From Spirochaetales bacterium (GTDB lineage: Bacteria; Spirochaetota; Spirochaetia; SZUA-6; DRHE01): a DNA stretch of 64,000 nucleotides. The stretch lies in contig JAUWZD010000002.1 of the NCBI GenBank assembly GCA_030615505.1, forward strand, positions 2,436 to 66,435. Reading direction: 5' to 3'. The notes beneath the pieces are model-generated. The model had not been told where the DNA came from and did no database searches. It saw only the letters and a list, made by a program, of their open reading frames with translations. This document shows positions 1 to 34,160 of this stretch, in pieces. A program made the position numbers and the translations under genes. Numbering within the stretch: the first letter of the stretch is position 1; the number at the start of each line of letters is the position of its first letter.

Positions 1-545
1 CCAATGTAGAAACCATATTTCAGGTGGGGAACACATCCCTGGCCATGGCCGGGGAACTGGTGACGGATATTAAAAAACTCGATGTGATGAGCAGCCTGGC
101 CGATAAGCTACGGCAAAGCCACTGCATGTTTGCATCTTCCAATACTTTTAAGAAAACCTATATTCTGGAGATTTCATACTGGACCGAAGGCATGCCGATC
201 TCTCTGTATAGAAGATTCCTCAAAAAGTATGGTTTTCCCGACCTGCAGCCGGCTGGCGGTACGCCTGAAATCATTCGCACAGTTAAGCGGGATATTGATG
301 ACCTCGGAAGAATGGGCCTCACCACCATTCCGGATATCGGGCGAAAGGTGCAAGTGGACATGGAAGGCTGCACAGCTTGCATGAATTGCGTGAAAGAATG
401 TCCTGAAAACGCCATCACCGTCATCGCAGAAGCTGATCCCGCAACGGTTGTGCTGGACCAATCCTTATGCAGCGGTGTGGCATGCAGGCGCTGTGAGAGA
501 TCTTGTCCTGAAAAGAGTTTTAAGCTCATCAGCTTTTTTTTGTGA
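1..545 (+). CDS. 4Fe-4S dicluster ferredoxin-domain protein. It is probably 5'-partial, because the frame is open to the window start and the track start at 24 is a GTG.
   Basis: Two CxxCxxCxxxCP motifs (CTACMNCVKECP and CSGVACRRCERSCP). No in-frame stop between nt 3 and 24. Confidence 0.5.
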   Translation, partial: NVETIFQVGNTSLAMAGELVTDIKKLDVMSSLADKLRQSHCMFASSNTFKKTYILEISYWTEGMPISLYRRFLKKYGFPDLQPAGGTPEIIRTVKRDIDDLGRMGLTTIPDIGRKVQVDMEGCTACMNCVKECPENAITVIAEADPATVVLDQSLCSGVACRRCERSCPEKSFKLISFFL

Positions 546-563
546 AGTAAACGGGGAATCACC

Positions 564-1352
564 ATGGGGAATCACCATATGGGAGTACTCGGTATTCTTA
601 CCTGCGAAATATTGGAACTCGAATTTGCCCATCTGCTTGTTACAGATAACGAACTGTCCCGGATTACAATTCTGGAAGATATCCGATCCTTCCGCTTGAT
701 CGAGGCGCTGGAATCAAAAAAGGTCAAGAAATTAAGACGAATCCCTCATATTAATAGTTTTTCTCCTGATCATTCAGAGCAGCCGGAGGTGCTTGTACGC
801 GTATTGGAACTGGCGCTTCACCGAACAAGGAAAAGATTGCAGGAAGGATTGGTCAATGCGGCCCGCGAGATGAGTCACCATGTGGATGCATTGCTTCTCG
901 GGTATGGTTTGTGCGGTAACGCACTTGAAAACCCGGGCGAGCTGCTTGATGTTGACCTGCCCGTCTTTATCCCCATGGACAGGGATCATCCTGTGGATGA
1001 CTGTGTCGGTCTGCTCCTCGGGGGACGGGACTGTTACTATGCGGAACAATGCAAAACCCCCGGAACATTTTTTATGATACCGGGATGGACGTACCATTGG
1101 AAGACAATATTCGGCCGAGACTGCAGCGATATGGATCCGGACATGGCAAAGCTCCTGTTGGCCAATTACGAGCGATCTCTTCTGGTTTTAACGCCTGTGG
1201 TGTCCAAAGATGAAATGAAAAAAAATGTGGAAGAATTCAACAAACTGTTTGGCTTACGGAGCGAAGCGCGTGAAGGAACGATGGAAATTTTAAATGAAAC
1301 CTGGAAAGACGCCAAAGCGTTTCTGAAGACTAAAATGGGGAATAGATTATGA
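564..1352 (+). CDS. Hypothetical protein, tentatively DUF1638-like.
   Basis: 262-aa ORF. The N-terminal [14 protein letters not shown] motif resembles DUF1638 (tentative, from memory). Its 3' end overlaps the start of the next gene by 4 nt. Confidence 0.4.
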
Positions 1353-4300
1353 AAATATCGAAACAGGGCCTGGCATCGCTGCAATGTATTCATGAGGGCG
1401 CCAATTCCCTCATTTACCGTCAGGACACAAGCGAGTACGGGAAACCAGTCATTATTAAACTCCTGAAACACGACTATCCTACATCTGAGCAGATTGTTCT
1501 GTTCAGCAATGAGTACGAATTAACGAAAGACCTCAGCATCCCGGGAATTCGCAAAGCATACGACACAGGCAGGATTGATGGCACACCTGCCCTCGTGTTG
1601 GACTATGTTGAAGGTGAGACCATCCGGGAAGCATTTGTTAAGCAGCGCAAGGGCCTGGCAGAGATGCTCACGGTAACAATCTCAATCGCGCAGGCATTGG
1701 GGGAAATCCATTACCACAACATCATTCACAAAGACATCAATAGCCGTAACATTCTGGTCAATCTCGAACAGCAGACAGCCACTATTATTGATTTCGGCAT
1801 GGCGTCGCAGGTCGATCTCAAGACCCGCTATATAGGGGATTTTGAAGTGTTGGGAGGGACTCTTCACTATATGTCGCCCGAGCAGACCGGCAGAATGAAT
1901 CGGTTTATCGATTATCGCACCGACCTCTATTCTCTGGGCGTTGTACTGTACGAGATGCTCACAGGGAAATTACCGTTTGACACAACTGATGTGTCGGAGC
2001 TCGTCCATTGCCACATTGCCAGACGTCCGACCCCGCTGTGCGAGATCAACTCCGACATCCCCCAGGCGATCTCGGACATTGCGATGAAACTGCTGGCAAA
2101 GAATGCTGAAGACCGCTATCAGTCTGCGTATGGCTTAAAGGCAGATTTAGAGAACTGCCTGAATCAATTAAGAAAAACAGGCACGATCGAAGGCTTTGAA
2201 TTAGCAAAAGAGGATTTTTCAGGGAGATTTCAGATTCCTCAGAAACTGTATGGCAGAGAACAGGAAATTCAAACCCTGATACAGGCATTTGAATGGGTGA
2301 ATAGAGGCACAAGTGAAATTCTTTTGGTATCGGGCTATCCAGGTGTGGGGAAATCTTCAATAGTCATGGAAATTCAAAAAATTGTCACGGAAAAGCAGGG
2401 ATGTTTCATCTCGGGGAAGCACGATCAATATCAGCAGAATACCCCCTATTATGGCTTGATTCAGGCGTTTACCGATCTTGTCAACATGATGCTGACGGAA
2501 AGTGACGAGCGATTTGCCCAATGGAAAGCAAAGATCGTGAAGGCGGTCGGGGAAAACGGACAGTTGTTGATTGAGGTGATTCCAAGTTTAGAATTGATTA
2601 TCGGCAGGCAGCCGCCTGTTCAGGAACTGGACCCCACAAAGGCACAACATCGCTTTCATTATGTGTTTCAAAACTTTGTTAAAGCCATTTCTCAAAAAGA
2701 ACATCCGCTGGTGTTATTTATCGATAATTTACAGTGGGCGGATGTTGCCTCTTTAGATTTCTTGAAATTGTTGATGAGCGGCGTAGAAAATCAGTATTTA
2801 TTGTTCATAGGCGCATATCGGGATAATGAGGTCGGGAAATCCCATCCGTTAATGATGACGGTCGAAGATATGAAAAAGAAAAAGGCTATTATCAACACGA
2901 TTCATTTGGCAAATCTTTCTCATGACACACTGAACCTTTTGATCTCGGACACTTTACAATGCGAACCGTCTTATGCGCAATCATTATCGGAACTGGTATA
3001 TGAAAAAACAGGTGGGAATACATTTTTTGCTATTGAATTTTTGAAATCGTTATATGAGGAAGGCTTGCTGACCTTTCATTTTGATATGCATAGATGGAAA
3101 TGGGATATTACTCAAATTCGGGAAAAGAATATTCCAGACGATGTGGCCGTGTTAATGATCCATAAAATCGAAAAATTACCTGAGGACACTCGAAAAATAC
3201 TGACACTGGCCGCATGTATAGGGCACAGGTTTGATCTGAAAATGCTGGCCGCCATTGCGGAACAATCGCTAAAAGATACATTTGACAATCTATGGAAGGC
3301 CGTTGAAGAGGGATTGGTACTGCCTTTGGATGATAATTATAAAATAATGGCGGCGCTTCCGAATGGACAACAATCGGGAGTAAAAAGCCATTTCGAATTT
3401 TTGCATAACAGAACCCGACAAACCTTCTATGCGCTGATTCGCAAAAAACAGAGAAAAACGATTTCTCTTACGATTGGGAGATTATGCTTACAGGATACGG
3501 AAGAGACTGATTTGGAAGAAAACATATTTGATATTGTGAATCAGTTCAATGAGGGGTTTCAATACATCAAAGATGAACAGGAGAAACTCAAGTTAGCAGA
3601 ATTAAATCTCATAGCCGGACGCAAAGCGAAGAACGCAACGGCATATAAGACGGCTATCTGGTATTTAAGTATGGGGATAGGACTGCTGCCGCCAAGAGAT
3701 AAATGGGAGGCTCAATATGACCTGGCGCTCAGCCTGTATATGGAAGCCGTGGAAGCCGAATACTTAATGACTACCTTTGAACGGGCGGAACTACTCTCCA
3801 AAGAAGTTCTCCAACATGCCAGAGGTCTCCTGGAGAAAATCAAAATTTATGATCTCCAGATCTTGTTTTACACAGCCCAAAACAAAAATGACAAAGCCAT
3901 AGAGTCTGCGCTGGAAGCCCTGGAGATGCTGGACGTCTCTCTGCCCACCGAACCGGAGGAGATAAATGTTTATGCTGAAAAGTTGCAGGAAGAATTGTCT
4001 GAAAAAGTCGACCGGATCGATGATTTAGCCGACTTGCCGGTAATGAAGGAGCCGTATCAATTGGCAGCGATGCGGATCTTGATGAATATGGCTGCTCCGG
4101 CTCATCAGGCGAATCCCGGATTGTTGCCGGCGATTATCTTCAAAATGGTTCTCATGTCCGTCAAATATGGGAATTCGCCCCTGGCAGCTTTTGCCTATGG
4201 TTGGTATGCCGCATTTTTATGCGGAGCATACGGTGACATCGAGAAGGGGCATCAGTTTGGACAACTGTCGGTGAAAGTGCTGGAGCAGTTTAACGCCACA

Positions 4301-7300
4301 GAACTCAAAGCTAAAGTTATCTTTCTGTTTAACGTTTCTGTAAGACACTGGAAAGAACATGCCGGCGAAACGATAAAACCTTTGCAGAAAGTACATCAAA
4401 GTGGGGTTGAAACAGGAGATTTGGAGTATGGGTATTATGGGGCTGCCCACTATTGCGGCTATTTGTTTTGTATCGGAGAATCCCTGGAACTTATTCGTCA
4501 GAAGCAGGCGGAATATCTGGAGACAACAAAAAGGTTTCGACTGGAGTTTCATAGTTATTTCATCAAGATATGGGCACAAATGGTTTTGAATCTCCTGGGC
4601 AGGTCCGCGGACCCGTGCCGGTTGACAGGGGAACTGCTTGATGAATCGGAAATGCTGCCGGTTTGGATAGAGCAAAACAATCTTACCCTGGTTTTTTGCG
4701 CTTCTTGCTGCCGGACAATCTTGCTGTACTTGTTTAAAAACTATGCTGAGGCGATCGAATCGGCCCGTTTGGGGGAAGAATACGAAAAAGGCGGAGAAGG
4801 ATTTATTTATCTTCCTGAGCACAAGTTTTACTATGCCCTGGCGCTTTTGGCTCACTATCCCGAGGTCGAACCCGGGACGAAGAAACAATATCTGGATATA
4901 GTGGCCTCGATTCAAGAAAAAATGAAACAATGGGCATGCCATGCCCCCATGAATTTTCAGCATAAATACGACCTGATCGAGGCAGAGAGAGGCCGGATAT
5001 CAGGTGAAACCCTCAAAGCAATGGAACATTACGGCCGGGCTATAAAAGGCGCCCGGGAACATGAATATATTCAGGAAGAGGCACTGGCGTATGAACGCGA
5101 AGCAGAGTTTTATCTTGCTTTGGGCAGAGAGGAATTTGCCCAGCTCTGCATAACCAAAGCCCTGGATGGCTACCGACTTTGGGGCGCAACACGCAAAGTT
5201 GACGATTTGGAAGCACAGTACAGGCATCTAATGCTGACAACTCTCACCCCGACCATGACTATACCAGAAAGTAAAGGAATGAGTTCCACTTCCACATCCG
5301 GAGTATCCGCTTCATTAGATACGGCAGCCATTATAAAAGCATCCCACATGCTCTCCCAGGAAATCCATTTGGAACGACTGCTTGACAAAATGATACACAT
5401 CGTCATTGAAAGTGCAGGCGCGGAAAAAGGCATTTTGATTGAGAACAGGAACTACAGGCTGATAATACAGGCAAAAGGCAAAGTCGGGCAGGAACAGGTC
5501 GAAACGATGCAGGAAATCCCCATCGAACAGAGCGGAGAAATTCCCCTCTCAGTTGTAAATTACGTAGCACGAACGCAAACGCCTGTCGTTTTGAATGATG
5601 CCTGTCATGACAACTCCTACGCCGCCGACAGATACATCCTAATCCATCAACCCAAATCGCTGCTGTGTCTGCCGATTGTCCATCAGGGAAAACTCTCAGC
5701 GCTGTTGTATTTGGAGAACAATCTGACAACAGACGCCTTTACTCCGGATCGTTTGGAATTATTGAGGACACTGTCCTCACAGGCAGCAATTTCAATAGTT
5801 AATGCCGACCTTTATGTCAGGTTGGAGGAAAAAATCAGGGCGCACAGGAAGGCTGAAAAGGAGTTAAAAAAGCACCGGGATCGCCTTGAAGAACTGGTGA
5901 AAGCGCGTACAAGAAATCTTGAAGCTGCCAACAAAGAACTCAATAAGGCCAAAGAAGAGGCCGAAACCGCCACCCAGGCAAAGAGCGAATTCCTGGCCAG
6001 CATGAGCCATGAGCTGCGTACCCCTCTCAATGCCATTATCGGCTTTTCGGAAATCCTCGGGGAAAAAACTTTTGGCGAACTGAATGAGAAACAGGCAAAA
6101 TACGTCAACCATGTCCTCACAAGCGGCCGCCACCTGCTCCAACTGATCAGCGACATCCTGGATCTTTCCAAGGTGGAAGCGGGCAAGATGGAACTTGAAC
6201 CATCCAGGGTGAACATAAAGGGTCTTCTTGAAAACAGTCTCGTCATGATCAAGGAAAAGGCTATGAAGCATAGCCTCAGGCTCGACCTGCACATCTCTGA
6301 GGAGCTAATGGATCTCGAGATATCGGTAGATGAGCGTAAACTCAAGCAGATTATGTTCAACCTGCTTTCCAATGCTGCCAAGTTCACCCCTGACGGCGGA
6401 GAAATCCACATCACTGCCCAATCAACAATCAACAATCATCAATCATCAATCCAGATCAGCGTAGCCGATACCGGCATCGGCATCAAACCCGAAGATCAGG
6501 AACGAATCTTTGGCGAGTTCGAGCAGGCGGACTCAACCTATGCCCGCGAGCAGGAAGGGACCGGCCTGGGCCTGGCGCTGACCCGCAAACTGGTCGAGCT
6601 GCACGGCGGTGGCATTTGGGTGGAAAGTAAAGGCGAGGGCAAAGGCAGCACCTTCACCTTTGTGATTCCTATTGAGGCTTTGGAGCGGGAGGGCGAGGTC
6701 TCCATCGAGCCGGAAGAACCTTTACCTTCCCGACCAGACGTGGACGATTCCCGGCCCCTGGTCCTGGTGGTGGAAGACGACCGCCAGGCGAGTGAGCTGA
6801 TCAGTCTTTATCTATCCGAAGCAGGCTATAGGGTGGCCCACGCCTTTGATGGGGAGCAGGCGATTAAAATAGCGCGGGAACTGAGACCTTATGCGATCAC
6901 CCTGGACATTATTCTGCCGAAGAAAGACGGCTGGGAGGTGCTGGCAGAGCTGAAATCCCTGCCTGAGGTGAAAGATATCCCTGTAGTCATCGTGTCAACA
7001 GTAGAAAAGCGACCGTTTGGCCTCAATTTGGGGGCCGTTGAATACTTTGTTAAGCCAGTGAACAAGGAGCAGTTAATCGAGGCCGTGCGCAAGATCGGGG
7101 CCGTGACTGTGGTTGTGGTTGACGACGAGCCCCAGACCGTTGAACTGTTGACCGACATGCTCCAGGCCGAGGGATTCACTGTGCTTCAGGCATATGGTGG
7201 TCAACAGGGCGTAGATCTTGCCATTGAGAAGCACCCCGACCTCATTATTGTTGACCTGATGATGCCTGAGGTGAGCGGGTTCGACGTGGTGGAGCAATTG

Positions 7301-7486
7301 CGGGCGCACCCTGAAGTTATGGAGATTCCGATCATGATTTACACCTCCAAAGATCTCACCGCAGAGGATCGACAACGGCTCAACAGTCACGTACAGGCGA
7401 TCGCCTCCAAGTCGGCTTCGGGCAAGAAGGACTTACTTCGGGCGCTTGAGAGGCTGGGAAAGAGGAAGGGCGGAAAATCAAATTGA
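1349..7486 (+). CDS. Giant multidomain signalling protein: Ser/Thr protein kinase, P-loop NTPase (AAA/NB-ARC-like) with a helical repeat region, GAF, coiled coil, HisKA, HATPase_c and two REC domains.
   Basis: Kinase motifs [16 protein letters not shown] and HYMSPEQ. Walker A motif [12 protein letters not shown]-like block around aa 1300–1460. H-box [18 protein letters not shown]. HATPase N/G boxes ([24 protein letters not shown]). Two receiver domains with [11 protein letters not shown] and [11 protein letters not shown]. Confidence 0.85.
6419..6453 (+). repeat. Heptanucleotide tandem repeat, in frame inside the HATPase domain: CAATCAA x2, CAATCAT x2, CAATCCA.
   Basis: Read directly from the sequence. 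It encodes the [11 protein letters not shown] linker between the N and G1 boxes. Confidence 0.6.
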
Positions 7487-7498
7487 CGAGGTTGTGAA

Positions 7499-7882
7499 AT
7501 GGCAAGCGAAAAGATACTGATCGTCGAGGACAATCCCATGAACATGGAACTGGCAACGGACCTGCTGGAAGCGGCAGGTTACGTCGTCATCCAGGCCGGG
7601 ACGGCTAAGGAGTGTATAGAGCTGGCGAGAGCCGAATTCCCCGACCTCATTCTCATGGACATCGGCCTGCCGGGCATGGACGGACTGGAGGCAACCGGGG
7701 TTCTGAAACAAGACCCTGCGACAAAAGATATTCCCGTCATTGCCCTGACGGCTCACGTGATGAAGGGAGATGAAGAAAGAGCGCTGGCGGCCGGCTGTGC
7801 CGGCTACATCACGAAGCCCATCGACACGAGTGAATTTCCCAAGGCGGTGGCTCGGTTCATTGAGTCTGCCGGGGTTCCATAA
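7499..7882 (+). CDS. Single-domain response regulator (CheY-like receiver).
   Basis: ILIVEDNPMNMEL, DLILMDIGLPGMDGLEA and ITKPID motifs. Confidence 0.85.
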   Translation: MASEKILIVEDNPMNMELATDLLEAAGYVVIQAGTAKECIELARAEFPDLILMDIGLPGMDGLEATGVLKQDPATKDIPVIALTAHVMKGDEERALAAGCAGYITKPIDTSEFPKAVARFIESAGVP

Positions 7883-7898
7883 AAGGAGGCACGTATTA

Positions 7899-10310
7899 AT
7901 GAAAATCCTTATTGTAGATGACATAAAAGCGAACCTCGAGCTGCTGGAAGCCAGGCTGGAGGGGAGCGGCTACGAAGTTGCATCTGCCAGGAACGGGGCA
8001 GAGGCACTGGAGAGCTTAAAAAGGGACTCCATTGACATGATCATCTCTGACATCCTCATGCCCAAGATGGACGGCTACCAGCTGTGCAGGGAGTGTAAGA
8101 GAGACGACACGCTAAGAAATATACCTTTCGTATTCTACACCGCTAATTACACAAACAAGAAGGACGAGGAGTTTGCTTTGAGCCTGGGTGCTGAGAGATT
8201 TATTGTGAAGCCAATGGAACATAAGCGCTTTATGGAGACAATCGAGGATACATTAAAGAATCACAAAAAAGGCCTCATGCCCTCTCCTGAAATGCCGGTA
8301 GAAAAAGAAGAGGCTGACTTCTTGAAGGAGCATAGCGAGCGGCTGATCAAGAAACTTGATCAGAAGGTATTCCAACTGGAGGAGACCGAAAGGACACTTC
8401 AGAATCGTACGTATGATCTTAAAGAGCGGGTCAAGGAGCTTGATTGCCTCTATAGTATTTCTAAACTTGCTGAGGAGGAGGGCATTTCGTTAGAGAAGAT
8501 AACTCAAGGGGTTGTTAATCTCATTCCCCCAGCATGGCAGTATCCGGAGATCACTTGTGCACGAGCAATTTTAGAGGGCCAAGAATTCAGAACGGGAAAT
8601 TTCAAAGAAACCGTCTGGAAGCAGGCAAGCGACATCAAAGTTCATGGCAAGTGGATCGGAACTGTGGAGGTCTATTACCTAGAAGAAAAGCCAGAAATAG
8701 ATGAGGGGCCTTTTCTGAAAGAGGAAAAAGCACTGATCATCGACATTGCCGAGCGATTGGGGAGAATTATCGAGCGAAAGCGGGCGGAGGAGTTGTTGAG
8801 GGAAAGCGAGGAAAAGTTCAGGGAGTTGTTCGATGGCAGCACCGACGCCATTTTTATCGCCAACCCCGAGACGAGGAAGTTGGTTGACTGCAACAAACAG
8901 GCCCAAAAGATCACCGGGTACTCAAGAGAAGAAATCCTTTCTATGAGAGCAGACCAGCTCCATCCCAAAGACAAGGTCAAAAAGACGATGGAAGGCTTCA
9001 AGAAACATGTCGCTGGCGAGTTTTTATTTGTCGAATCAGAAGTCCTGACCAAGGACAAGAAAAGAGTCCCGGTCAGCATCAGTTACTCTCTACTCGAAAT
9101 CGCCAGCGAGAAATATCTCCAGTGCATTTTCAGGGACATTACCGAGAGTAAGCAGGCAGAGCAAAAAATACAGGAATACTCTCAAAACTTGGAACGTATG
9201 GTGGAAGAGAGAACCAAAGAACTTAACCGAGCCCTTTATGACACAGAAGCGGCACGGGACAGGATAGATGGTATCCTCAAGTCTATTGGTGACGGCCTGA
9301 TCGTCACCGATATGTATAACAGGATTATTTTGATGAACCTTGCTGCTGAAGATCTGCTGCGTGTACGCTTTAGTGAGGCGATTGATCGATCCATCGATTT
9401 TACCATCAAGGATAAAACCCTTAGGGATCGAATCAAAACAACCCTGGATAAAAAGAAGGGAGGATATGAGTTTGATTTTGAACTGCCGGGAGAGGATACC
9501 AAGCATCCCCGTATTATGCGTGCCAGGACATCGGTGATTGATGATAAGACCGGTAAGCATACCGGTAGTATAACCATTATCCATGATGTGTCCTACGAGC
9601 GCGAGGTGGACAGAATGAAGACAGAGTTCCTCTCAACAGTAGCCCATGAATTAAGAACCCCTCTCACCTCCATCCAGGGTTTCTCAGAGATTCTCTTAAC
9701 GCGGGATGGTATCAAAGAGGAAGAGAAAGAAGAGTGTCTCTCCTACATCAACAAACAATCGGTAAATCTGGCCACTCTTATCAACGATCTTTTGGATATC
9801 TCCCGTATTGAATCCGGTAAGGTATTTACTCTGAACAAGACTCCCTGCAATATTGCCGATATCATCAAATACACAATTCCCTATTTTCAGACACTGTCTC
9901 CAAAACACAGCTTTGAGGTGGTCTTGCCAGAAGAATCCGTGGAATTGATGGTGGATAAGGAAAAGATGGGGCAGGTGTTAGAGAACCTTCTGAGCAATGC
10001 GGTAAAGTATTCTCCCGAAGGCGGCTCTATTTCCGTGTCGGCAAAAAGGATTGAGGAATTGGAAGGAGACGAAAAACAATCCGCAATCGAGATCAGCGTA
10101 GCTGATACGGGCATGGGGATGAGCCCTGAGCAGGTGGAGAAGATATTTGATAAATTCTACCGTGCAGATGCCTCCAACACTGCCATTCCAGGTACTGGTC
10201 TGGGCATGAACATTGTCCAGTGCATTGTGGAGACCCATGGGGGCAAGGTTTGGGTGGGGAGTGAGCTGGGGAAAGGAACAACGGTTAAATTTACAATACC
10301 AACAAAATGA
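7899..10310 (+). CDS. Hybrid sensor histidine kinase (REC, coiled coil, GAF/PAS-like, PAS, HisKA, HATPase_c).
   Basis: Start chosen at ATG 7899, which has an AAAGGAGG SD, rather than the upstream 7770 start that overlaps the preceding gene. REC (MIISDILMPKMDGYQ), PAS (FDGSTDAIFIANPETRKLVDCN), H-box VAHELRTPLTSIQGFSEILL, and HATPase (DTGMGMSPEQ, GTGLGMNIV). Confidence 0.85.
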   Translation: MKILIVDDIKANLELLEARLEGSGYEVASARNGAEALESLKRDSIDMIISDILMPKMDGYQLCRECKRDDTLRNIPFVFYTANYTNKKDEEFALSLGAERFIVKPMEHKRFMETIEDTLKNHKKGLMPSPEMPVEKEEADFLKEHSERLIKKLDQKVFQLEETERTLQNRTYDLKERVKELDCLYSISKLAEEEGISLEKITQGVVNLIPPAWQYPEITCARAILEGQEFRTGNFKETVWKQASDIKVHGKWIGTVEVYYLEEKPEIDEGPFLKEEKALIIDIAERLGRIIERKRAEELLRESEEKFRELFDGSTDAIFIANPETRKLVDCNKQAQKITGYSREEILSMRADQLHPKDKVKKTMEGFKKHVAGEFLFVESEVLTKDKKRVPVSISYSLLEIASEKYLQCIFRDITESKQAEQKIQEYSQNLERMVEERTKELNRALYDTEAARDRIDGILKSIGDGLIVTDMYNRIILMNLAAEDLLRVRFSEAIDRSIDFTIKDKTLRDRIKTTLDKKKGGYEFDFELPGEDTKHPRIMRARTSVIDDKTGKHTGSITIIHDVSYEREVDRMKTEFLSTVAHELRTPLTSIQGFSEILLTRDGIKEEEKEECLSYINKQSVNLATLINDLLDISRIESGKVFTLNKTPCNIADIIKYTIPYFQTLSPKHSFEVVLPEESVELMVDKEKMGQVLENLLSNAVKYSPEGGSISVSAKRIEELEGDEKQSAIEISVADTGMGMSPEQVEKIFDKFYRADASNTAIPGTGLGMNIVQCIVETHGGKVWVGSELGKGTTVKFTIPTK

Positions 10311-10386
10311 TTTTGGATTGCAGGTTATGGATCACATCGCAAATCTAATATCTGAGAGATAGAAATGAAAAGGAGGAATCGTAAGG

Positions 10387-10752
10387 ATGAAAAAGATTCT
10401 CGTAGTAGATGACCAGCCAGAGGTTAGGAAGCTGGTGGAGATGACCCTCAAGGTTGAGGATTACCAGGTTCTCCAGGCTAAAAGCGGGGAGGAAGCCGTT
10501 GAGATTGGTAAGGCGGAAAAACCTGACCTGATCATCATGGACATCATGATGCCAGGTGATATACATGGACTTGAGGCCACCCGTATTCTAAAAGATGACC
10601 CGGAAACCAAAGAATGCACTATCATTATGTTGACAGCCAAAGGCCAGGAGGCTGACAAGGAAGAGGGGTTTAAAGCAGGAGCAGATGACTATTTTACTAA
10701 ACCCTTCAGCCCTTTGGAATTGATAAGGAAGGTGGAAGAGGTTCTGGAGTAG
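10387..10752 (+). CDS. Single-domain response regulator (CheY-like receiver).
   Basis: KILVVDDQPEVRKL, DLIIMDIMMPGDIHGLEA and FTKPFSPLEL motifs. Confidence 0.85.
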   Translation: MKKILVVDDQPEVRKLVEMTLKVEDYQVLQAKSGEEAVEIGKAEKPDLIIMDIMMPGDIHGLEATRILKDDPETKECTIIMLTAKGQEADKEEGFKAGADDYFTKPFSPLELIRKVEEVLE

Positions 10753-10793
10753 TTGAAACTCGAAACTTGATACTGGAAATTGCGATGTATACT

Positions 10794-10820
10794 ATCGAGC
10801 ATCGAGCATCAAGCATCCAA
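10794..10820 (+). repeat. Heptanucleotide tandem repeat (ATCGAGC x2, ATCAAGC, ATCCAA) in the leader of the HD-GYP gene.
   Basis: Read directly. It lies between the REC stop (10752) and the best start of the HD-GYP gene (ATG 10839, SD GGGGAG). Confidence 0.6.
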
Positions 10821-10838
10821 TATCCAGGGGAGATTTTC

Positions 10839-11639
10839 ATGGAAATAAATGACTTTCCGAAAGATTCTTCTAATTCGAATCAATTAGAAAAATATGCAAA
10901 GGATCTCGCCGAAGTTTGCAAATCTGAAAAGGAAAAAAGAAAAGAGCTTGAAGCTGCAAATCAGCAACTTGTGAAATATGCCGATGACCTGAACAAGACC
11001 ATCTTAGAACTAAAGGGCAGCCAACAAGAACTACAGAAAGCCTACCTTGACACTATTCACCGTCTTGTGCTTGCGGCTGAATATAAAGATGAAGACACGG
11101 GCGACCATATCATGCGCATGAGTCGTTACAGTGCCTTGATTGCTGAAAAACTTGGTCTGTCGGCCAACGAGGTTCAAAATATACTCTATGCTGCCTCCAT
11201 GCATGATGTGGGAAAAATCGGCATACCGGATAGCATTTTAATGAAGCCGGGCAAATTGACAGACGAAGAATTCGGAACCATGAAAACCCATAGCGTAATA
11301 GGGGCAAATATCCTGGCGTATTCAAAGGCTGAGATCCTCAAACTTGCAGAGCAGATAGCCATTTCCCATCATGAAAAATGGAATGGTAAGGGATATCCGC
11401 AGGGCCTTGGCGGTGATAATATTCCTCTCGCAGTCAGGATTGTTGGCCTGGCAGATGTCTTTGACGCTCTTACTTCCAAACGTCCTTACAAAGATCCTTT
11501 TCCTGTAGAAGTTGCGATCGATATTATTAAGAAAGAGCGTGGTGAACATTTTGACCCAGATGTGGTAGATGTTTTTTTGGAAAATATAGATGAAATCGTA
11601 AAAATCAAAGAAGAAGTGGATTCAACAGAAGTTGTGTAA
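10839..11639 (+). CDS. HD-GYP domain phosphodiesterase (c-di-GMP hydrolase family).
   Basis: HDVGKIGIPDSIL and HHEKWNGKGYPQGL motifs. An N-terminal coiled coil. The track start at 10767 is a TTG; ATG 10839 has a good SD. Confidence 0.8.
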   Translation: MEINDFPKDSSNSNQLEKYAKDLAEVCKSEKEKRKELEAANQQLVKYADDLNKTILELKGSQQELQKAYLDTIHRLVLAAEYKDEDTGDHIMRMSRYSALIAEKLGLSANEVQNILYAASMHDVGKIGIPDSILMKPGKLTDEEFGTMKTHSVIGANILAYSKAEILKLAEQIAISHHEKWNGKGYPQGLGGDNIPLAVRIVGLADVFDALTSKRPYKDPFPVEVAIDIIKKERGEHFDPDVVDVFLENIDEIVKIKEEVDSTEVV

Positions 11640-12211
11640 ATGAATAATAAATCCGGGAAAAGAGAATTTAATCGTTTTCCAATTGGACTAGGGGACGTCC
11701 ATTTGTAATTAAATAACTGTAAGACGAGAGTAAGGGATTGGGGCGTAATGTTAAAAATAGAGGTCGGTGATCTACAATTTTGTCGGATGGGGTCAGATCC
11801 GCTGTATAGAAAATGATCCAGACATACCTGAGGCAGTATTGATGATTGTCGATTGAAAAACAAAGAAGGTTTTTGTTTTAAGGAAATATGGTACTTTGTG
11901 GGATGGTTTTAAACAGACTATGGAAAACGCCTATAAATATCTCTTCGGTGCAAGAAGCGGATCAGTTCGAATGTGTCACCTGACAACTTGAGGCCGAGCC
12001 GATAATCTCCGATCCTTAAGCGGTAGTAGCTGGGAAAACCTGCAATCTTTTTGACTCCTTTTAGTCCTGCCGGGGAGTCTAACCTTTTCGATCCGGCAAG
12101 GGAAATAAGCCGATCCCCAGCCGTAAAAAACCGGGGATCGGCTCGCGCTGCAATACTTAAAAGAGCTTGTACACGGCGTCGTTGGACATGTCGAAAAGCC
12201 CGGTATCATCT

Positions 12212-12909
12212 TCATAGGCCTTCGAACGGCTGTCTGGAGAAACAACGATCGTGGGTTGGAACCCCTCCATGACCTTCGATCAGTCTATCGACAAGTTGTT
12301 CCTCCCCGCCCCAGCCGCGGATAACTTTTTCGGGCGGCGCCACATCTCTCTGGGTGTTGTATGGCCTATTCTCCAGGCCCCAGCGAAGGTACATCTCAGA
12401 TCCGAGAATCGACAGCGCCCGGGTAGCCTCCACCACCAGGACCTGGGACAGGGCACCCCCTTTGAGAACCCGGGCGGGGTAGATATCTCCCACCTTTCTC
12501 TGAGGATACAAGTCCAACCCTGATTCTCCGTCGGTAAACAGAAGAGTGACAATTCAAAAGGGGTCCATCCTGATGACGCTCCTGCATACCCCAGCCAGTC
12601 CGTCTATCCCCGTGCGAAAATCTACCGCTTCCACCGCCAGCAGAATCCGCATCTGCGGCGTGATCTGTATCAACGCCTTCGATCCAACAACGGCGGTAAA
12701 GCCTCAACCCGCTGCTTCAACCTCGTGTAGTCCAGGACCAGTGTCTGCGCAATATCGCTGATGGAGTGCCGCTCCGACAACTCGGCCGCCGCCTGCCACA
12801 AGCGCTGCGGTATTCGCGAACCCCTTTTTCTGACGCTGCACCAGCTTTGGAACTCCTTCAACACTTCCGCCGGTGTCCGCCGTCCGTCCGGCAAATTCTC
12901 CTGTTTCAT
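12212..12909 (-). other. GC-rich (~60%) degenerate foreign fragment with short ORFs, including one transposase-like HTH. Unassigned mobile-element remnant.
   Basis: Local GC is clearly higher than the flanks. The ORF 12670..12909 (RRTPAEVLKEF...ISDIAQTL) looks like a transposase N-terminal HTH. A perfect 11-bp inverted repeat lies at 12108–12143. No intact gene. Confidence 0.25.
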
Positions 12910-13112
12910 CAGCCATCCTCCTCGTGATCTTTGGATAGCCTATGCTACACCCTCCGGCTGCGATTTCCACGCACGCTCACCGAAAGGACACGATGAATTG
13001 ACCTTGGCATCACGGTATTCCAAAAGCAGAATGACACCTCCCGCCGTAATAAGTATATGTGGGCTCAAAAGCTCAAATAAACCAAACGCTTACAGAACCT
13101 CTATCTTCCTAA

Positions 13113-13783
13113 TATACCCATATACCAAGAGGGCAAAATGTCCTGCAAACGGTATTCAAAGAACATTTTGATGATTTCAGAGAAGTGTATGATGAGAAAT
13201 ATTCAAAAGCATACGGCAAATATCGTATTGATAGAATTAAAGAAGTTGTAGAAGAATTCATAAAATTCGGAGACTATAAAGAAGGTCTTGCTAGAATAAA
13301 ATCCACAGGATGAAACCATGTACCAACCCTGACTGCGGTCATCCACAGGATGCCCGCTGGGTGCCCGCAGGGTGAAACCAAAACCATGATTATTTTGTTC
13401 CCCTATCCTGCAAGGGATTCTATCTATGTCCGTCTTGTCATCAGAAAAGAACCCTCTTGTTTGCAGAACAGATCACACAAGAAGCTCTCTTAAGGCTTCC
13501 GCACAGACAGTGGGTTTTTTGTATTCCCAAGTGCCTTCGAGTGTTTTTCAAGCATGACAGAATGCTGTTCTCCGATATATCCAGGTTGATCTTTCAGATG
13601 CTCCAATCCTACTATGATAAGGTTTTAGCTAATTCTATCCAAACCGGCGGCACCCTGGACGGATCATCCGGATGGGCACATGACATCGAGCAACCCCGCA
13701 CGTACTACGAGAACTCATGCGTTTACTTGAAGTCCTTGTGTCGGGCAGTTCCCTGTGTAAAGCTCATTCAAATGATTGTTTGA
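13113..13783 (+). pseudogene. IS91-family (rolling-circle, HUH Y2) transposase N-terminal fragment. It has no start codon, is interrupted by two repeat-element insertions, and is truncated after the zinc-binding/N-terminal domain.
   Basis: Translation gives FKEHFDDFREVYDEKYSKAYGKYRIDRIKEVVEEFIKFGDYKEGLARIK, then [insert] CTNPDCGH [insert] DYFVPLSCKGFYLCPSCHQKRTLLFAEQITQEALLRLPHRQWVFCIPKCLRVFF. This matches the conserved IS91-family N-terminus (GF-RvrC-CG-SCK-CPSC...HRHWVFTlP). Confidence 0.7.
13302..13386 (+). repeat. Repeat-element copy A. A 17-bp short form (13302–13318) and a 45-bp long form (13342–13386) flank 23 bp of transposase coding sequence.
   Basis: TCCACAGGATGAAACCA, and TCCACAGGATG CCCGCTGGGTG CCCGCAGGGTG AAACCAAAACCA. 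Deleting both restores the transposase reading frame. Confidence 0.7.
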
Positions 13784-13945
13784 AGGGAGCAGAACATGGG
13801 CAAGCAATTCGAACTGTTCGAAGCGGAGGAGAGACATTGGATCGACAGACTGTGGCAGTCGATGCCGCCGAAAGCACGGGGCGAGGTAATCGGAATTAGT
13901 ATCATCTTCTTGACGTATGTGGGATCACCGGTACTCTGATAGCCG

Positions 13946-15213
13946 ATGAGGAAGGTTCCACAGGAGAAATGGCATACGCTTTTGAAAGATCATCACGAGG
14001 GCTATATCTCATGGGAGCAGTTTGAAATAAACCGAAAACGCATCGGGTCGAACGGGCGGCCAGGAAAGGGCCCAGGAGCACCACGGGAGGGGGATGGACT
14101 TCTGCAAGGGATCATTCTCTGCGGACGCTGTGGAAGAAGGATGAGAATCGCTTACGGAAAAGGCTCCAGGCCGACCCATTATAGCTGCGCACAAGCGCGC
14201 AAGCAAACAGGTGCTCCGGTGTGTCAGAGTTTTGGAGCACGCCGGCTGGAGCAAGCAGTGGAAGGACTCTTGTTGGATTGCCTGTCACCGCTGGGCGTAG
14301 AGGCTATGCTGGAAGCGGCGAAGGTGTATACCGAGGATAACGAGGTGGAACGGACCCGATGGAAACAAAACATCGAGAGAGCACACTACGAGATGAATCT
14401 CGCTCGCCGGCAGTATGATGCGGTGGATCCAGAGAATCGGCTTGCCGGAAGGTCCCGACCTTGGGGTTGCTCGGGAGCTGGAAAGACGGTATGAAAAGGC
14501 ACTTAGAGCCATAGAAGAGATTGAGTCGGAAGCGTATTGCCCGATGTCTGATCGAGAACGTAGTGGTAACCTCACCGCGAGAAGGCACAATGCTTATAGC
14601 CCAGGTGCACTGGAAAGGCGGCGAGGTTACAAAGCTCGATGTACTCAAGGGCAAGAGTGGCATTCACCGTTATGTGTCGCCTCTTGAACTCGTTGAGTTA
14701 ATACGTACGCTGGCAACTGAGTTTTCAGACATCCAGATCGCACGCATTTTGCACCGCAAGAGACTGAAGACACCAAAGGGTCGGCCTTTCATGGCTTACC
14801 ATGTAGCCAACGTGCGAAATAAATATAACATTCCTAAGGGTCTACGGGTGCCACTACGAGGGGAAGACGTCTATACGGCAGAAAAAGCAGCAGAACTGTT
14901 GGGTGCCTGTCGAAGTACAATTATCCGGTGGTTAGAAGTTGGCTTGCTACGCGGTTCACAATTGACATCTGGAGCTCCGTGGCGTATCGTAGTAACCAAA
15001 GAGGACATCGAAAGGCTAAAACCGAATGAGGTTGGTGAAGGTAGGTATCCGCTTAAGGGAGCGGCTTCGGCCTTAGGGGTGAGCCAGCAGACCGTTTTGC
15101 AAAAGGTTAAGTCGGGAGAGCTTGAAGCCATTCGAGTGCGAACAGGCAGGCGTGTAGGCTGGAGAATTCGTTTACCCATAAGCATTTACGACAATCAACC
15201 AGCCTTGTTTTAA
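13946..15213 (+). pseudogene. Large serine recombinase, C-terminal two-thirds, split over three frames by frameshifts. The catalytic resolvase domain is absent.
   Basis: Recombinase domain and zinc beta-ribbon (LLQGIILCGRCGRRMRIAY...YSC). A coiled coil in frame 0 (ELERRYEKALRAIEEIE). A C-terminal segment in frame 1 with two excisionase-type HTH motifs. Frames 2, 0 and 1 meet at about 14415–14687. Confidence 0.65.
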
Positions 15214-24525: not shown

Positions 24526-24554
24526 AAAGAGGTCTTTTAAAGACCTCTTTTTTA
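24526..24554. terminator. Rho-independent terminator between the convergent rpsU and ABC-ATPase genes.
   Basis: 11-bp perfect stem AAAGAGGTCTT / AAGACCTCTTT with loop TTAA, followed by a T-run. Confidence 0.6.
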
Positions 24555-25283
24555 TAGAATATGATCCAAAAATTTCCTGGTTCTTTCCTTCAGGGGATTG
24601 TTAAACAGCACTTCAGGGGGAGCAGTTTCTATTATTTCGCCGTTATCCATGAATACCACTTTATTTGCTGCTGCCCTGGCAAAGCCCATTTCATGAGAGA
24701 CTACCAGCATGGTCATGCCGTCCTCTGCAAGATCGAGCATGACATCTAAAACCTCTTTGATCATTTCCGGGTCTAAAGCCGATGTAGGTTCATCAAAGAG
24801 CATTACCTTGGGGTTCATGGCCAAGGCACGGGCAATTGCAACCCGCTGCTGCTGCCCTCCGGAGAGCTGATCCGGATAGGTTACTATTTTATCCAGTAAG
24901 CCGACCCGCTTTAAAAGCTTTCGTGCAGCCTCATTTGCTTCTTCTTCAGACATTTTCTTTACAATGCGGGGGGCCATGGTGATATTCTTCAAGGCATTCA
25001 GGTGGGGGAAGAGGTTGAAGGACTGGAATACCATCCCCACCTCTTCTCTGATCCTGCGTATATTGGCTTGAGGATCGGATACGCACTCATCATCAATCCA
25101 TATCTCCCCGGATGTGAGATTCTCAAGCCGGTTTATACAGCGGAGCAGGGTGCTTTTACCGCTGCCCGAGGGGCCGATCACCAGCACGACTTCCCCCTTT
25201 TTCACTATTATATTGGCATTGCGAACGGCTTCAAGCTTGCCGAAGCTCTTGTTTGCATTGATTATTCTAACCCTATCCTTCAC
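24552..25283 (-). CDS. Polar amino-acid ABC transporter ATP-binding protein.
   Basis: Walker [14 protein letters not shown], signature [15 protein letters not shown], Walker [12 protein letters not shown]. Confidence 0.9.
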
Positions 25284-26058
25284 GTTTTTGTAACCTTTCC
25301 TCCATTATCCCGACGAGTTTTGAGAAGAAGAGAGTAAGGATAAGATATACCAAAGCTACGACCGTATAGGTTTCAAAATAGTAGAAGGTTTTGGAAGCGA
25401 ATTCTCTGCCTCTTCTTAGAAGATCAGAAACAGCAAGGATGGATACTAAGGAGGAATCTTTAAGCAGGGCAATAAATTCGTTTCCCACAGGCGGAAGAAC
25501 TACTTTAACGGTTTGGGGCAGTATGATCCTTCTCATGGCCTGCATCCTGGACATTCCAAGTGCTAATGCTGCTTCCATCTGGCCCTTTGGAATGGACTGA
25601 ATTCCTGCCCGGAATATTTCACCGAGGTAGGCCCCGTAACAGACAGTCATGGCCGTGATGGCTGCTATCAGCCGGGGCACCCGGATGAGCTTTCCCATTG
25701 CGTAGTAGATGTAAAAGAGCTGTACTAAAAGGGGAATCCCGCGGATGATTTCAACATAAATGGTAGCGATTTTATTGACTACTTTATTGCGGGAGATTCT
25801 ACCCAGGCCGGTAAAAAGGCCCACGATGAGGGAAAAGATTATGGAGAGTACGGTTACCTGGAAGGTCCGCAAGATACCATCGGGCAGAAAGTAGATAATC
25901 TGCCGGTATGGTTCCGATCTGATTAGTGGGAGGATGATGAGCAGGCCCAGGGCCCCGAAAAAGGAGATCCGCCAGGCACTTAGGCCTGCCTTTTCCCCCT
26001 TTTCCGGGATAAGGGCCCCGTCCGAGACATCAATTTTAATTTTTTTTATCTCAGCCAC
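25273..26058 (-). CDS. Polar amino-acid ABC transporter permease.
   Basis: Multi-TM protein with the EAA-like loop typical of His/Gln/Glu-family permeases. Lies in an operon with the ATPase. Confidence 0.85.
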
Positions 26059-26810
26059 TTTTCTTCAATTTCAGTGTAGGTGGGTGTGTTCAGGACCTTT
26101 TTAAGGCCCCGATTTATGGCTTCCAGCACCTCAGTGTTTCCCTTTTTAACGACAATGCCGTAGTACTCATCGGTGAAGGGTTTGCCGACGATCTTCAGCT
26201 TTCCCTTATAATTCTCATTCTGAAGTGCAAAATCGGCGGCCACGGGGGTGTCGGCCACGCATCCATCGATCCTTCCGTTGACCAGGTCCATAAAGGCGAG
26301 TCCTATCTCATCATAGGTCTTCAGATCTACTCCGGAAACCTCTTCAATGGCAAACGAGCCTGTAGTGCCGATCTGGGCGCCTACGGATTTACCCTTCATG
26401 TCTTCCAGCGTCTCCACCCCCTCGCTTTCGGTACGGACAATCAGAACCTGACCGGCGTTGATATACGGGTCAGAGAAATCCATGGTTTTCTTTCTTTCCT
26501 CCGTGATGGTTACTGAGGACATGACAGCATCGTATTGTCCGGCAGGAAGTCCGGCAAAGATGCCGTCCCAGGCTGTGTTCTTAAACTCCATCGTGAAACC
26601 GCCCGCTTCAGCGATGGCATTCATTAGATCAATATCGAAGCCCACAATTTCCTTGTTCTCATCTACCATCTCCATGGGGGGCCATGTAGCATCCGTGGCA
26701 ACTACAATATGGAGCTTTTCAACCTTTTCTTCTTTCTTAGCACATCCTGTCATGAGCAGTCCGGCCACTGCGGCCAGGATAACAAATAAAAGAATCGTCT
26801 TTTTCAGCAT
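26046..26810 (-). CDS. Amino-acid ABC transporter substrate-binding lipoprotein (family 3 SBP).
   Basis: Signal peptide with lipobox (LMTGC). SBP_bac_3-like sequence. Confidence 0.85.
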   Translation of the reverse strand: MLKKTILLFVILAAVAGLLMTGCAKKEEKVEKLHIVVATDATWPPMEMVDENKEIVGFDIDLMNAIAEAGGFTMEFKNTAWDGIFAGLPAGQYDAVMSSVTITEERKKTMDFSDPYINAGQVLIVRTESEGVETLEDMKGKSVGAQIGTTGSFAIEEVSGVDLKTYDEIGLAFMDLVNGRIDGCVADTPVAADFALQNENYKGKLKIVGKPFTDEYYGIVVKKGNTEVLEAINRGLKKVLNTPTYTEIEEKWLR

Positions 26811-26880
26811 AGAAGCCTCCTTATTAAATATAAATAATATATTAGATCATAATAGAATTGAGGTCATTGTCAAGTCAATC

Positions 26881-26940
26881 TACAGGGTGCCCACAGGATG
26901 CCCGCAGGGTGCCCACAGGGTGAAACCAAAACCAAAACCA
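26881..26940 (+). repeat. Repeat-element copy C (60 bp) in the divergent intergenic region upstream of modA.
   Basis: TACAGGGTG CCCACAGGATG CCCGCAGGGTG CCCACAGGGTG AAACCAAAACCAAAACCA, then TGG. Confidence 0.75.
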
Positions 26941-27003
26941 TGGAAAGTTTAAAAGAATTGCAACTCAGTTGCATAAATTTATTTTAACAGATATACTCAA
27001 ATT

Positions 27004-27744: not shown

Positions 27745-27750
27745 GGCTAA

Positions 27751-31668: not shown

Positions 31669-31779
31669 TACCCTTGAGGCCCGCCGTTGGCATTTTAAGG
31701 GATTGAAATTGCTATTTGCAGAATATACAGCAAAATTTTACCTGGTAAAGCGGCCTGAACAGGCAAGGCAGGGAGCTTC

Positions 31780-32577: not shown

Positions 32578-32581
32578 AATC

Positions 32582-34087: not shown

Positions 34088-34160
34088 CGCAGGGTAGAGC
34101 AGTTGGAAGCTCGTCGGGCTCATAACCCGGAGGTCGCAGGTTCGAGTCCTGCCCCTGCTA
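34088..34160 (+). tRNA. tRNA-Met (anticodon CAT) with initiator-type features.
   Basis: The cloverleaf folds by hand: acceptor CGCAGGG/CCCTGCT with an unpaired C1·U72, D-arm GAGC/GCTC, anticodon stem with three G:C pairs next to the loop CTCATAA, and T-arm GCAGG-TTCGAGT-CCTGC. It is close to E. coli tRNA-fMet. No CCA is encoded. Confidence 0.85.

Follow-up and report, generated by a model that had tools for sequence, protein, structure and literature searches.

We studied a window of 64,000 nucleotides (nt) from a Spirochaetales bacterium (contig JAUWZD010000002.1; "the window" always denotes this whole stretch of DNA) with regard to the five-gene signalling island at positions 1349-11639. 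In our judgement, the island probably forms the signalling end of an operon for a corrinoid (methanol-type) methyltransferase; a dual kinase of 2045 amino acids (aa; the megaprotein) would there head a two-tier cascade that reaches hydrolysis of cyclic di-GMP (c-di-GMP). All five open reading frames (ORFs) are present as claimed in a preliminary description of this DNA, and Pfam supports every domain named there. They lie co-directionally on the + strand and are tightly spaced, with intergenic gaps of 12, 16, 76 and 14-86 nt after the megaprotein gene. The order is megaprotein, a stand-alone receiver (REC127), a second kinase composed of a receiver, two PAS domains and a histidine kinase (REC-PAS-PAS-HK), another stand-alone receiver (REC121), and an HD-GYP protein. 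That is, the claimed neighbours (two receivers, a REC-PAS kinase and an HD-GYP protein) do exist, but the two stand-alone receivers are not adjacent and the HD-GYP protein comes without a receiver. What the preliminary description missed are the upstream RACo-DUF1638 genes, the conserved methyltransferase-operon context, and the mosaic origin.

The window opens inside a RACo gene, i.e., the 3' end of a RACo/RamA-type reductive activator for corrinoid enzymes (3..545, + strand) with the ASKHA C-terminal domain and a 4Fe-4S ferredoxin domain (Pfam RACo_C_ter and Fer4, E 7e-9 each). It is followed by the gene of a 262-aa DUF1638 protein (564..1352, + strand; Pfam DUF1638, E 1e-33), whose stop codon TGA and the start codon of the megaprotein gene share the sequence ATGA (1349-1352). 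The window's RACo and DUF1638 products are 83% and 78% identical to their counterparts in the relative locus L001, and the ATGA overlap of DUF1638 and kinase genes is also found in L001, L047/48 and L131. Within the respective clade of dual kinases, MtaC-MtaB-RACo precedes the kinase gene in 6/7 distinct relative loci examined, across phyla. The complete order MtaC (B12-binding), MtaB, RACo, DUF1638, dual kinase is found in L001, L047/L048, L130, L131 and L135; L136 has MtaC-MtaB-RACo-kinase without DUF1638, and L049 has a divergent B12-binding gene. For the N-terminal block of the megaprotein (N-block, residues 1 to ~1513), which is 56-66% identical to the mta-linked clade, the identities per locus are 66% (L001), 63% (L049), 61% (L047/L048, Candidatus Sabulitectum), 60% (L131), 56% (L130, Chloroflexota), 54% (L135, Anaerolineae) and 53% (L136). 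A neighbour-joining tree of the N-terminal 1500 residues places the mta-linked kinases and the window protein in one clade, which appears to have spread between phyla along with the methyltransferase genes. At 43-47% identity (L002, L132), as well as in cyanobacterial loci, the mta linkage was not seen. DUF1638 itself has genetic and proteomic ties to RamA-like corrinoid enzyme reactivation (PMC5764234, PMC12478193). The sole characterised bacterial regulator of mta operons that we found is the AraC-type MtaR (PMC13602510), and a description of a kinase linked to mta operons was not found in the searchable literature.

The megaprotein gene (1349..7486, + strand) encodes, in this order, a Ser/Thr kinase-like (STK) domain, a STAND nucleoside triphosphatase (NTPase), a solenoid resembling tetratricopeptide repeats (TPR), a GAF domain, a coiled coil, a HisKA/HATPase transmitter and two receivers. 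The domain annotation that had been asked for was run with Pfam (matches at E<=0.01; 17 families) and supports the claimed series of STK, NTPase, GAF, histidine kinase and two receivers throughout. The Hanks-type Ser/Thr kinase domain spans aa 13-258 (1385..2122; Pkinase, E 7e-35, 121 bits vs. a cut-off of 31.7; PknB structures, E 2e-30). The STAND module, i.e., nucleotide-binding domain (NBD), helical/winged-helix part and solenoid arm, covers 2258..5233, with an AAA_16 match at aa 299-487 (140 bits, E 1e-40). GAF (aa 1341-1483, 5369..5797; E 2e-15), HisKA (aa 1544-1612) and HATPase_c (aa 1661-1776) all exceed their Pfam cut-offs, the latter two making up the transmitter at 5978..6676. Between GAF and transmitter lies a coiled-coil signalling helix (5798..5977), which, according to BLASTP segment boundaries, holds the mosaic junction described below. 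The C-terminal receivers are found at aa 1805-1914 and about 1920-2030 (6761..7438; all of these features on the + strand).

The residues expected for phosphotransfer are in place. Both transmitters of the island keep the H-box His (H1554 in the megaprotein, H583 in the second kinase) together with intact N, G1 and G2 boxes, and the D-D-D-T/S-K quintet is complete in all five island receivers. The megaprotein thus does end in two receivers of its own with complete acceptor quintets (REC1, D1853; REC2, D1969), as had been proposed. Here, REC2 is atypical: K-S replaces K-P, and an Ile occupies the aromatic switch position. Within the HATPase_c coding region we also observe a tandem repeat, CAATCAA x4.7 at 6419-6451, that is translated as part of ...INNHQSSIQ....

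For the N-terminal part, the first 560 megaprotein residues were aligned with the 120 best homologues. The kinase domain keeps K37, E55, H127-K128-D129, N134, D148-F-G and S-P-E. Two of these, the beta3 Lys and the Asp of DFG, do not vary among the relatives, and three more are almost always kept: the alphaC Glu in 118/120, the Asn of the catalytic loop in 116/120 and the catalytic Asp in 106/120. Such conservation speaks for selective pressure to bind nucleotide and to catalyse. The Gly-rich loop (E-G-A-N-S-L-I-Y-R) is degenerate in the window kinase and in all 120 relatives. In the NTPase, both the Walker A motif (GYPGVGKS, aa 329-336) and the Asp of Walker B (hhhhD459) are invariant among the 120 relatives. 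The adjacent residue 460 (window 2726-2728) is Asn here and in 10/120 relatives, and Asp in the other 110/120. The position after the Walker B Asp aids hydrolysis in STAND and AAA proteins. Since Asn replaces the usual Asp, the window member may bind nucleotide but hydrolyse it slowly.

No homologue of the AAA_16-solenoid part (aa 280-1340) was found by sequence search of the PDB. We therefore turn to its AlphaFold model, which was built on a 42-sequence alignment and is confident (pLDDT 86.3, pTM 0.75). The model is laid out as an alpha/beta P-loop domain, helical and winged-helix-like parts (to about aa 700) and an alpha-solenoid (about aa 700-1295). Its top Foldseek match in the PDB is 6mfv (E 5e-9), a STAND protein with tetratricopeptide repeats; lower matches include MalT 8bob (E 9e-5, target TM 0.58) and Cdc6/Orc1. 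Judged by this model, the NTPase is predicted to be of the AAA_16/STAND-TPR type with a TPR-like solenoid. The "NB-ARC/AAA-like switch" of the preliminary description is hence half right: the fold matches and the model support a switch-type P-loop NTPase, but its P-loop domain is AAA_16, and NB-ARC (PF00931) is absent among the 17 Pfam families found.

With regard to its family, the megaprotein is far from exceptional. An exhaustive HMMER scan of 1.84 billion cluster representatives (50% identity), using the first 1200 megaprotein residues as query, yielded 20,131 matching representatives at E<=1e-30. Nearly all of the best 150 of these are collinear over almost the whole 1200-aa query. Pkinase, AAA_16, GAF and HATPase_c occur together in all 120 best of at least 8000 candidate homology matches. 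The homologue P0008 is 43% identical over 99% of the query, and many proteins from Nostoc, Microcoleus and Scytonema reach 43-45% identity over 93-99% of the megaprotein, with 45% over 93% for proteins from Nostoc, Microcoleus and Cylindrospermum. One homology match bears the "trifunctional..." product name by which NCBI denotes this architecture, and exact look-up of the 2045-aa product returned no identical record. The same architecture is described for the cyanobacterial "dual protein kinases" (cbSTKIII, including HstK and Pkn40/41), for which shuffling of the GAF and HisKA domains is also recorded (PMC2176072), and the same domain order for the fungal group X hybrid kinases (Chk1, Mak2/Mak3; PMC6324907, PMC5383687). 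The claim that the domain combination is rare is thus contradicted by the number of representatives, by the 120/120 best matches sharing the architecture, and by the literature on both groups. Based on its sequence, we regard the megaprotein as a soluble and unremarkable representative of the large dual protein kinase (HstK/cbSTKIII) family. A more specific name is not assignable: NCBIfam equivalogs (TorS, HrmK, BarA, LuxQ, NosR and others) score far below their cut-offs for the island proteins, so that there is no named orthologue (e.g., 334 vs. 676 bits among the TorS, BarA and ArcB scores). Convincing membrane segments are absent from the three larger proteins checked, i.e., the megaprotein, the second kinase and the HD-GYP protein. 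As a side observation, the two closest neighbours of the window protein in the tree of the N-block (P0044/P0010) are 68% identical over only 41% of the query; one of them carries a Candidatus Odinarchaeota label for its metagenome-assembled genome (MAG), which could reflect a binning error or an inter-domain transfer of the kinase clade.

The megaprotein is a mosaic. In BLASTP comparisons, the similarity of the N-block to P0001-P0004 ends and that of the C-terminal block to L007-L009 begins at aa ~1496-1527. Residues 1496-2045 share 68-78% identity with the C-terminal halves of ~900-aa hybrid kinases (L007, L008, L009), whose sensors are of the dCache, sCache-HAMP-PAS or CHASE8-HAMP-PAS type, and the C-terminal parts of the mta-linked relatives are unrelated or just 30-44% identical to the window protein. 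The hybrid kinase of L009 has two receivers, to which REC1 and REC2 show 75% and 68% identity. The genome-contig scan with the whole megaprotein gave mostly matches to its histidine kinase end, so that it is informative for the cassette but not for full-length orthologues. In L007, L008 and L009, a 127-aa receiver with 72-83% identity to REC127 comes after the HK-REC-REC gene. L009 further encodes a REC-HD-GYP protein (52% over the catalytic part) and a REC-GAF-HK protein (its receiver is 66% identical to that of the second kinase). Triplets of histidine kinase, stand-alone receiver and REC-HD-GYP are found in L012, L025/26 and L041, and the succession of dual kinase, receiver and REC-x-HK occurs in L001, L047/48 and L130 as well.

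Since HK-REC-REC, REC127, the HD-GYP domain and the receiver of the second kinase are found again behind Cache/CHASE8 sensors, which are unrelated to the sensor of the window protein, the island from ~aa 1496 to position 11639 is a recurrent output cassette. In the window it is joined, at the coiled coil in front of HisKA, to the STK-STAND-GAF sensor that belongs to the methyltransferase operon. The GC content at third codon positions (GC3) of 5849-7882, i.e., the HK-REC-REC part and REC127, is 0.63-0.67 and thus the highest among the 20 window genes sampled (0.33-0.57 elsewhere, 0.51-0.55 in the flanking genes). Together with the 68-83% cassette identity, this would fit a fairly recent exchange of the 5849-7882 block by recombination or transfer. 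In L001 (10909-11726), the nearest of the relative loci, an IS110 transposase gene interrupts the counterpart of the second kinase after 84 aa, and in L021 (2179-3343) the HD-GYP gene is split by a frameshift; the downstream cassette genes seem prone to disruption.

Downstream of the megaprotein gene, the stand-alone receiver REC127 (127 aa, D54; Pfam REC, E 1e-28) is encoded at 7499..7882 (+ strand). The listed ORF of the second kinase (7770-10310) overlaps this gene; its real start is the ATG at 7899 after AAGGAGG, which gives an 803-aa protein (7899..10310, + strand) with a receiver (D51), a ~130-aa stretch, two PAS domains, HisKA (H583) and HATPase_c, and without a C-terminal receiver. The stretch between receiver and first PAS domain (aa ~165-300, window 8390-8800; motif ...LDCLYSISKL...) has no Pfam match. 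It is conserved in the L007 counterpart, to which aa 1-340 are 46% identical, and is probably an undescribed sensor or linker domain. REC121 (121 aa, D52; 10387..10752, + strand; Pfam REC, E 3e-31) is a PhoB/OmpR-like receiver without output domain; its match to the NCBIfam PhoB receiver (122 bits) is below the cut-off. Its identity amounts to 36-43% with fused receivers and to 37-51% with stand-alone receivers, so that it is a clear orthologue of neither group.

The last gene is listed as ORF 10767-11639. Its likeliest start is the ATG at 10839 after GGGGAG (alternatives are TTG 10767 and ATG 10785), so that the HD-GYP phosphodiesterase domain protein comprises 266 aa (10839..11639, + strand; HD_5, E 4e-35, 121 bits vs. 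a cut-off of 27). It consists of a coiled-coil linker and the HD-GYP domain with intact HDVGK and GKGYP motifs. The best profile match, that of the NosR-family REC-HD-GYP proteins in NCBIfam, aligns only from position 114 (147.7 bits vs. a cut-off of 400), and the intact homologues examined (L009, L012, L014, L025, L041) are all REC-HD-GYP fusions of 361-374 aa. The 362-aa fusion of L009 is collinear with REC121 (39%, in one frame) followed by the HD-GYP ORF (52%, in another frame). The spacer in between (10753-10838) is repetitive, with a 14-mer x1.9 at 10753-10779 and ATCGAGC x3.4 at 10794-10817; a copy-number change of the 7-nt ATCGAGC unit would shift the reading frame. A terminator-like hairpin at 11684..11701 (+ strand), a consensus match only, is found 45 nt past the HD-GYP stop and is a probable end of the transcription unit. 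It is the only noteworthy hit of the promoter and terminator consensus scans, which were otherwise at background (20 vs. 17.6 and 18 vs. 14.8 expected). Rfam and tRNA scans of window positions 1-14 kb gave no match.

How signals could flow through these proteins depends on the presence of a histidine phosphotransfer (HPt) domain. Hpt (PF01627) is absent from all five island proteins at the above Pfam threshold, a result that covers these proteins and not the genome beyond the island. The island therefore does not encode a classical His-Asp-His-Asp relay, and the "complete", "multi-step phosphorelay" of the preliminary description is worded too strongly. A two-tier kinase cascade is the more likely design given the domain content. 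The proposal that the system feeds into c-di-GMP turnover fares better: it is plausible, as cassettes of histidine kinase, receiver and REC-HD-GYP recur in relatives, but the HD-GYP protein of the window lacks a receiver of its own. Because the enzyme is physically separated from a receiver, it would be controlled in trans or not at all.

From the domain anatomy, the intact residues and the gene neighbourhoods, all of which are observed directly, we infer a possible chain of phosphotransfer steps, including the nature of the signal and the enzyme activities involved (Ser/Thr and His kinase activity, c-di-GMP hydrolysis, an oligomerisation switch). A cytoplasmic signal related to the methyltransferase system would act on the STAND/TPR/GAF sensor, which together with the Hanks-type kinase domain makes up the N-terminal 1500 aa. 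By analogy with STAND proteins, a change of nucleotide or oligomer state would then pass via GAF and coiled coil to the transmitter. H1554 could donate its phosphoryl group to the megaprotein's own receivers (D1853 and D1969, as sinks or autoregulators), to REC127, and to the receiver of the second kinase. Phosphorylation of the latter would tune the second kinase (H583), for which the PAS domains may add a second input and which would phosphorylate REC121. Finally, REC121 would control the HD-GYP enzyme in trans and thereby lower c-di-GMP.

We considered whether the mosaic structure is an artefact, i.e., whether the 2045-aa ORF is an assembly chimera of an STK-AAA-GAF gene and an HK-REC-REC cassette from different genomes, a caveat already raised in the preliminary description. 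The two halves do have different nearest relatives with a sharp boundary, GC3 rises at the cassette, and a second near-identical contig with the same junction was not found in the metagenome collection; the respective scan with the junction-spanning aa 1331-1730 gave a best match of 49% identity and is uninformative on this question. On the other hand, Logan contigs from run SRR14872670, located through the DUF1638 and Lon products, provide a direct comparison: contig SRR14872670_145447 (L133) matches window 18-6448 without gaps and with just 2 mismatches (99.97% identity). It extends over 500 nt past the junction and ends at the CAATCAA repeat, away from the junction. The reads behind this contig are probably the same as those behind the MAG. 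Furthermore, in tetranucleotide composition 1-5800 resembles the remaining window (correlation r 0.86) no less than other segments do, the order GAF, coiled coil, HisKA is the family norm, and swapping of C-terminal modules is general in the clade and documented for the family (PMC2176072). Since an independent assembly crosses the junction without gaps and the composition is alike, a chimera is very unlikely. The five genes might also be a chance gathering of independent two-component genes without a shared pathway or a link to the corrinoid genes. Receivers and kinases are in general highly numerous and frequently lie in clusters, the downstream gene order differs between window and L009, REC121 has no clear orthologue, and the mta-linked relatives differ among themselves in their C-terminal modules and in the genes downstream. 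We nevertheless regard this as unlikely, given that HK-REC-REC, the 127-aa receiver, REC-x-HK and HD-GYP are found together again, with 52-83% identity, in MAGs that carry different phylum labels, that the succession of dual kinase, receiver and REC-x-HK is seen in three further loci, that the ATGA overlap with DUF1638 is kept, and that the intergenic gaps are short.

Other alternatives concern single proteins. The N-terminal kinase domain might be a pseudokinase-like scaffold or a nucleotide sensor, in which case the megaprotein would be a histidine kinase with a very large cytoplasmic sensor and would not phosphorylate Ser or Thr. The Gly-rich loop, degenerate in the window protein and across its relatives, speaks for this, as do the HKD instead of an HRD motif, the PDB kinase alignments that begin only at about residue 25-32, and the term "S/TK-related" used for the fungal homologues (PMC6324907). 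The conserved catalytic residues, all of them present in the window protein, and a Pkinase score far above the cut-off point the other way, so that we hold this possibility, which is compatible with the cascade proposed above, to be serious though not the favoured one. For the HD-GYP gene, we considered that it is a decayed or unregulated remnant minus its receiver, which would imply that c-di-GMP is not a regulated output of the kinases here. The window protein begins at the linker where the intact homologues examined are fusions, small tandem repeats fill the spacer, and degraded insertion sequence (IS) and recombinase sequences follow directly downstream. Yet the frame is open with both motifs intact, identity to homologues is 48-57% over the whole catalytic domain, ribosome binding site and start are plausible, and a receiver gene is found 14-86 nt upstream; we thus consider a remnant rather improbable. 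A role of the megaprotein as an anti-phage defence sensor of Avs or kinase type was considered because the PADLOC models PD-T4-6, mad6 and MkoA match aa 12-280, the fold is STAND, and a prophage is located elsewhere in the window. These matches are limited to the generic Hanks kinase domain, leaving the NTPase/TPR part unmatched, for which reason we reject this reading; the effector end is moreover a standard histidine kinase transmitter, the neighbours are metabolic and two-component genes, and the prophage is more than 22 kb away, all of which makes a defence function extremely improbable.

Several points weigh against our interpretation of the island as the signalling tail of a methyltransferase operon that acts on c-di-GMP. 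MtaB and MtaC are not within the window: it starts inside RACo, and their presence in this organism is thus deduced from the relatives. Partner assignments among the kinases and receivers draw on adjacency and synteny and are accordingly provisional. The island has neither an HPt domain nor a DNA-binding response regulator, and therefore no visible route back to the transcription of the methyltransferase genes. Real Ser/Thr kinase activity of the megaprotein is uncertain because of its degenerate Gly-rich loop. The HD-GYP protein lacks the receiver carried by every intact homologue examined and is possibly unregulated, or a decaying gene beside degraded mobile-element DNA; the present state of REC121 and HD-GYP may go back to gene fission at the domain boundary or to receiver loss.

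Beyond this interpretation, we put forward a tentative and rather doubtful extension: the window clade might be a dedicated cytoplasmic sensor of anaerobic methylotrophy, whose STAND/TPR/GAF part reads methanol, methyl-corrinoid or the redox/activation state of cobalamin, possibly via DUF1638 or RACo, and passes it to two-component signalling that here reaches c-di-GMP hydrolysis. If true, this would amount to a lifestyle or motility response to methylated substrates.

As to the host, Lon proteins from MAGs with the labels Spirochaetales, Spirochaetia or Spirochaetota share 73-79% identity with the Lon encoded in the window. At the upstream end, the independent contig L133 starts only 17 nt inside the window start, which suggests a repeat or strain-variable point at window 1-20 that breaks assemblies, e.g., paralogous mta/RACo clusters. 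After the island, 11640-15213 looks like degraded mobile-element DNA marking its right boundary: ~2.3 kb of short frame-broken ORFs on both strands (those at 12.2-13.0 kb gave no Pfam match), a strong 16-bp hairpin at 12107-12144, a recombinase zinc-ribbon fragment (13946-14494) and an HTH_17 protein (14521-15213). Further downstream, 24552-33034 holds two ATP-binding cassette (ABC) transporter sets, one of amino-acid type with SBP_bac_3 (- strand) and one of molybdate/tungstate type with SBP_bac_11 (+ strand), followed by molybdenum-cofactor genes (a MoCF_biosynth protein, DUF364 and a radical-SAM MoaA-like protein). Window 34088-57000 seems to hold a prophage inserted beside tRNA-Met (34088-34160), with genes for a tyrosine integrase (34256-35431), baseplate J (38756-39853), a Mu GpP-like hub (41022-42272), a DNA-circularisation-type protein (42250-43467), an S49 protease (50660-51910), a lambda-type portal (53006-54703) and terminase gpA (55107-56969).

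STK-AAA-GAF-HK dual kinases have been catalogued since 2001-2007 and are known in thousands, and cassettes of kinase, receiver and HD-GYP are standard c-di-GMP wiring, so that both hold little surprise for a specialist. To our knowledge, the signal is known for no member of the dual kinase family. Here, a monophyletic subgroup that is closely and repeatedly linked to one metabolic module, the methanol-type corrinoid methyltransferase with its reductive activator and DUF1638, provides a testable input hypothesis, and the linkage offers a possible partner for the uncharacterised DUF1638. The locus is also a clean natural case of sensor-module swapping (Cache, CHASE8 or STAND) at the coiled coil preceding HisKA, which is useful for deriving rules of kinase rewiring.

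Compared to known systems, the AAA_16-solenoid part has the layout of the STAND proteins of PH0952 type (6mfv) and MalT (8bob), i.e., P-loop NBD, helical/winged-helix parts and alpha-solenoid, with the Walker motifs kept. In contrast to these, the window protein uses a histidine kinase transmitter as effector instead of a DNA-binding domain, carries an N-terminal STK domain, and has Asn after the Walker B Asp. Like MtaR, the window kinase would be a dedicated regulator encoded with a bacterial methanol:corrinoid methyltransferase operon; MtaR, however, is a one-component AraC-type activator, whereas the window has a dual kinase plus receivers and no DNA-binding output visible in the island. 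For the output side, RpfC/RpfG of Xanthomonas is a suitable reference, which combines a hybrid sensor kinase with a REC-HD-GYP c-di-GMP phosphodiesterase and in which RpfC has an HPt domain. Here as well, a hybrid kinase is found beside an HD-GYP enzyme with intact motifs, and relatives of the window cassette encode fused REC-HD-GYP proteins. The window HD-GYP protein differs from RpfG by its missing receiver, and the window kinase from RpfC by its missing HPt domain and by the extra tier (REC-PAS-HK) in between.

The fungal group X kinases (Candida albicans Chk1, S. pombe Mak2/Mak3) combine, as here, an S/TK-related domain, GAF, histidine kinase and receiver within one large soluble protein (PMC6324907, PMC5383687). 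The match of the megaprotein to PF25503 TPR_CHK1 (aa 1153-1243) is weak (E 4e-5, 23.5 bits vs. a gathering threshold of 27). The fungal proteins feed an HPt protein (Mpr1/Ypd1) and a mitogen-activated protein kinase (MAPK) pathway, whereas the island is without HPt, and their roles in oxidant sensing and morphogenesis are not transferable to the window protein. Closest are the cyanobacterial dual kinases HstK/Alr2258 and Pkn40/Pkn41 (Anabaena PCC 7120), which show the same order of STK, AAA_16, long helical region, GAF, HisKA/HATPase and often REC, and share the degenerate Gly loop as well as the invariant catalytic residues. Unlike these, the window protein resides in a non-photosynthetic, Spirochaetota-like host, has two C-terminal receivers and a transmitter from a cassette otherwise found on Cache/CHASE8 sensors, and belongs to a separate clade tied to MtaC/MtaB/RACo/DUF1638 genes.

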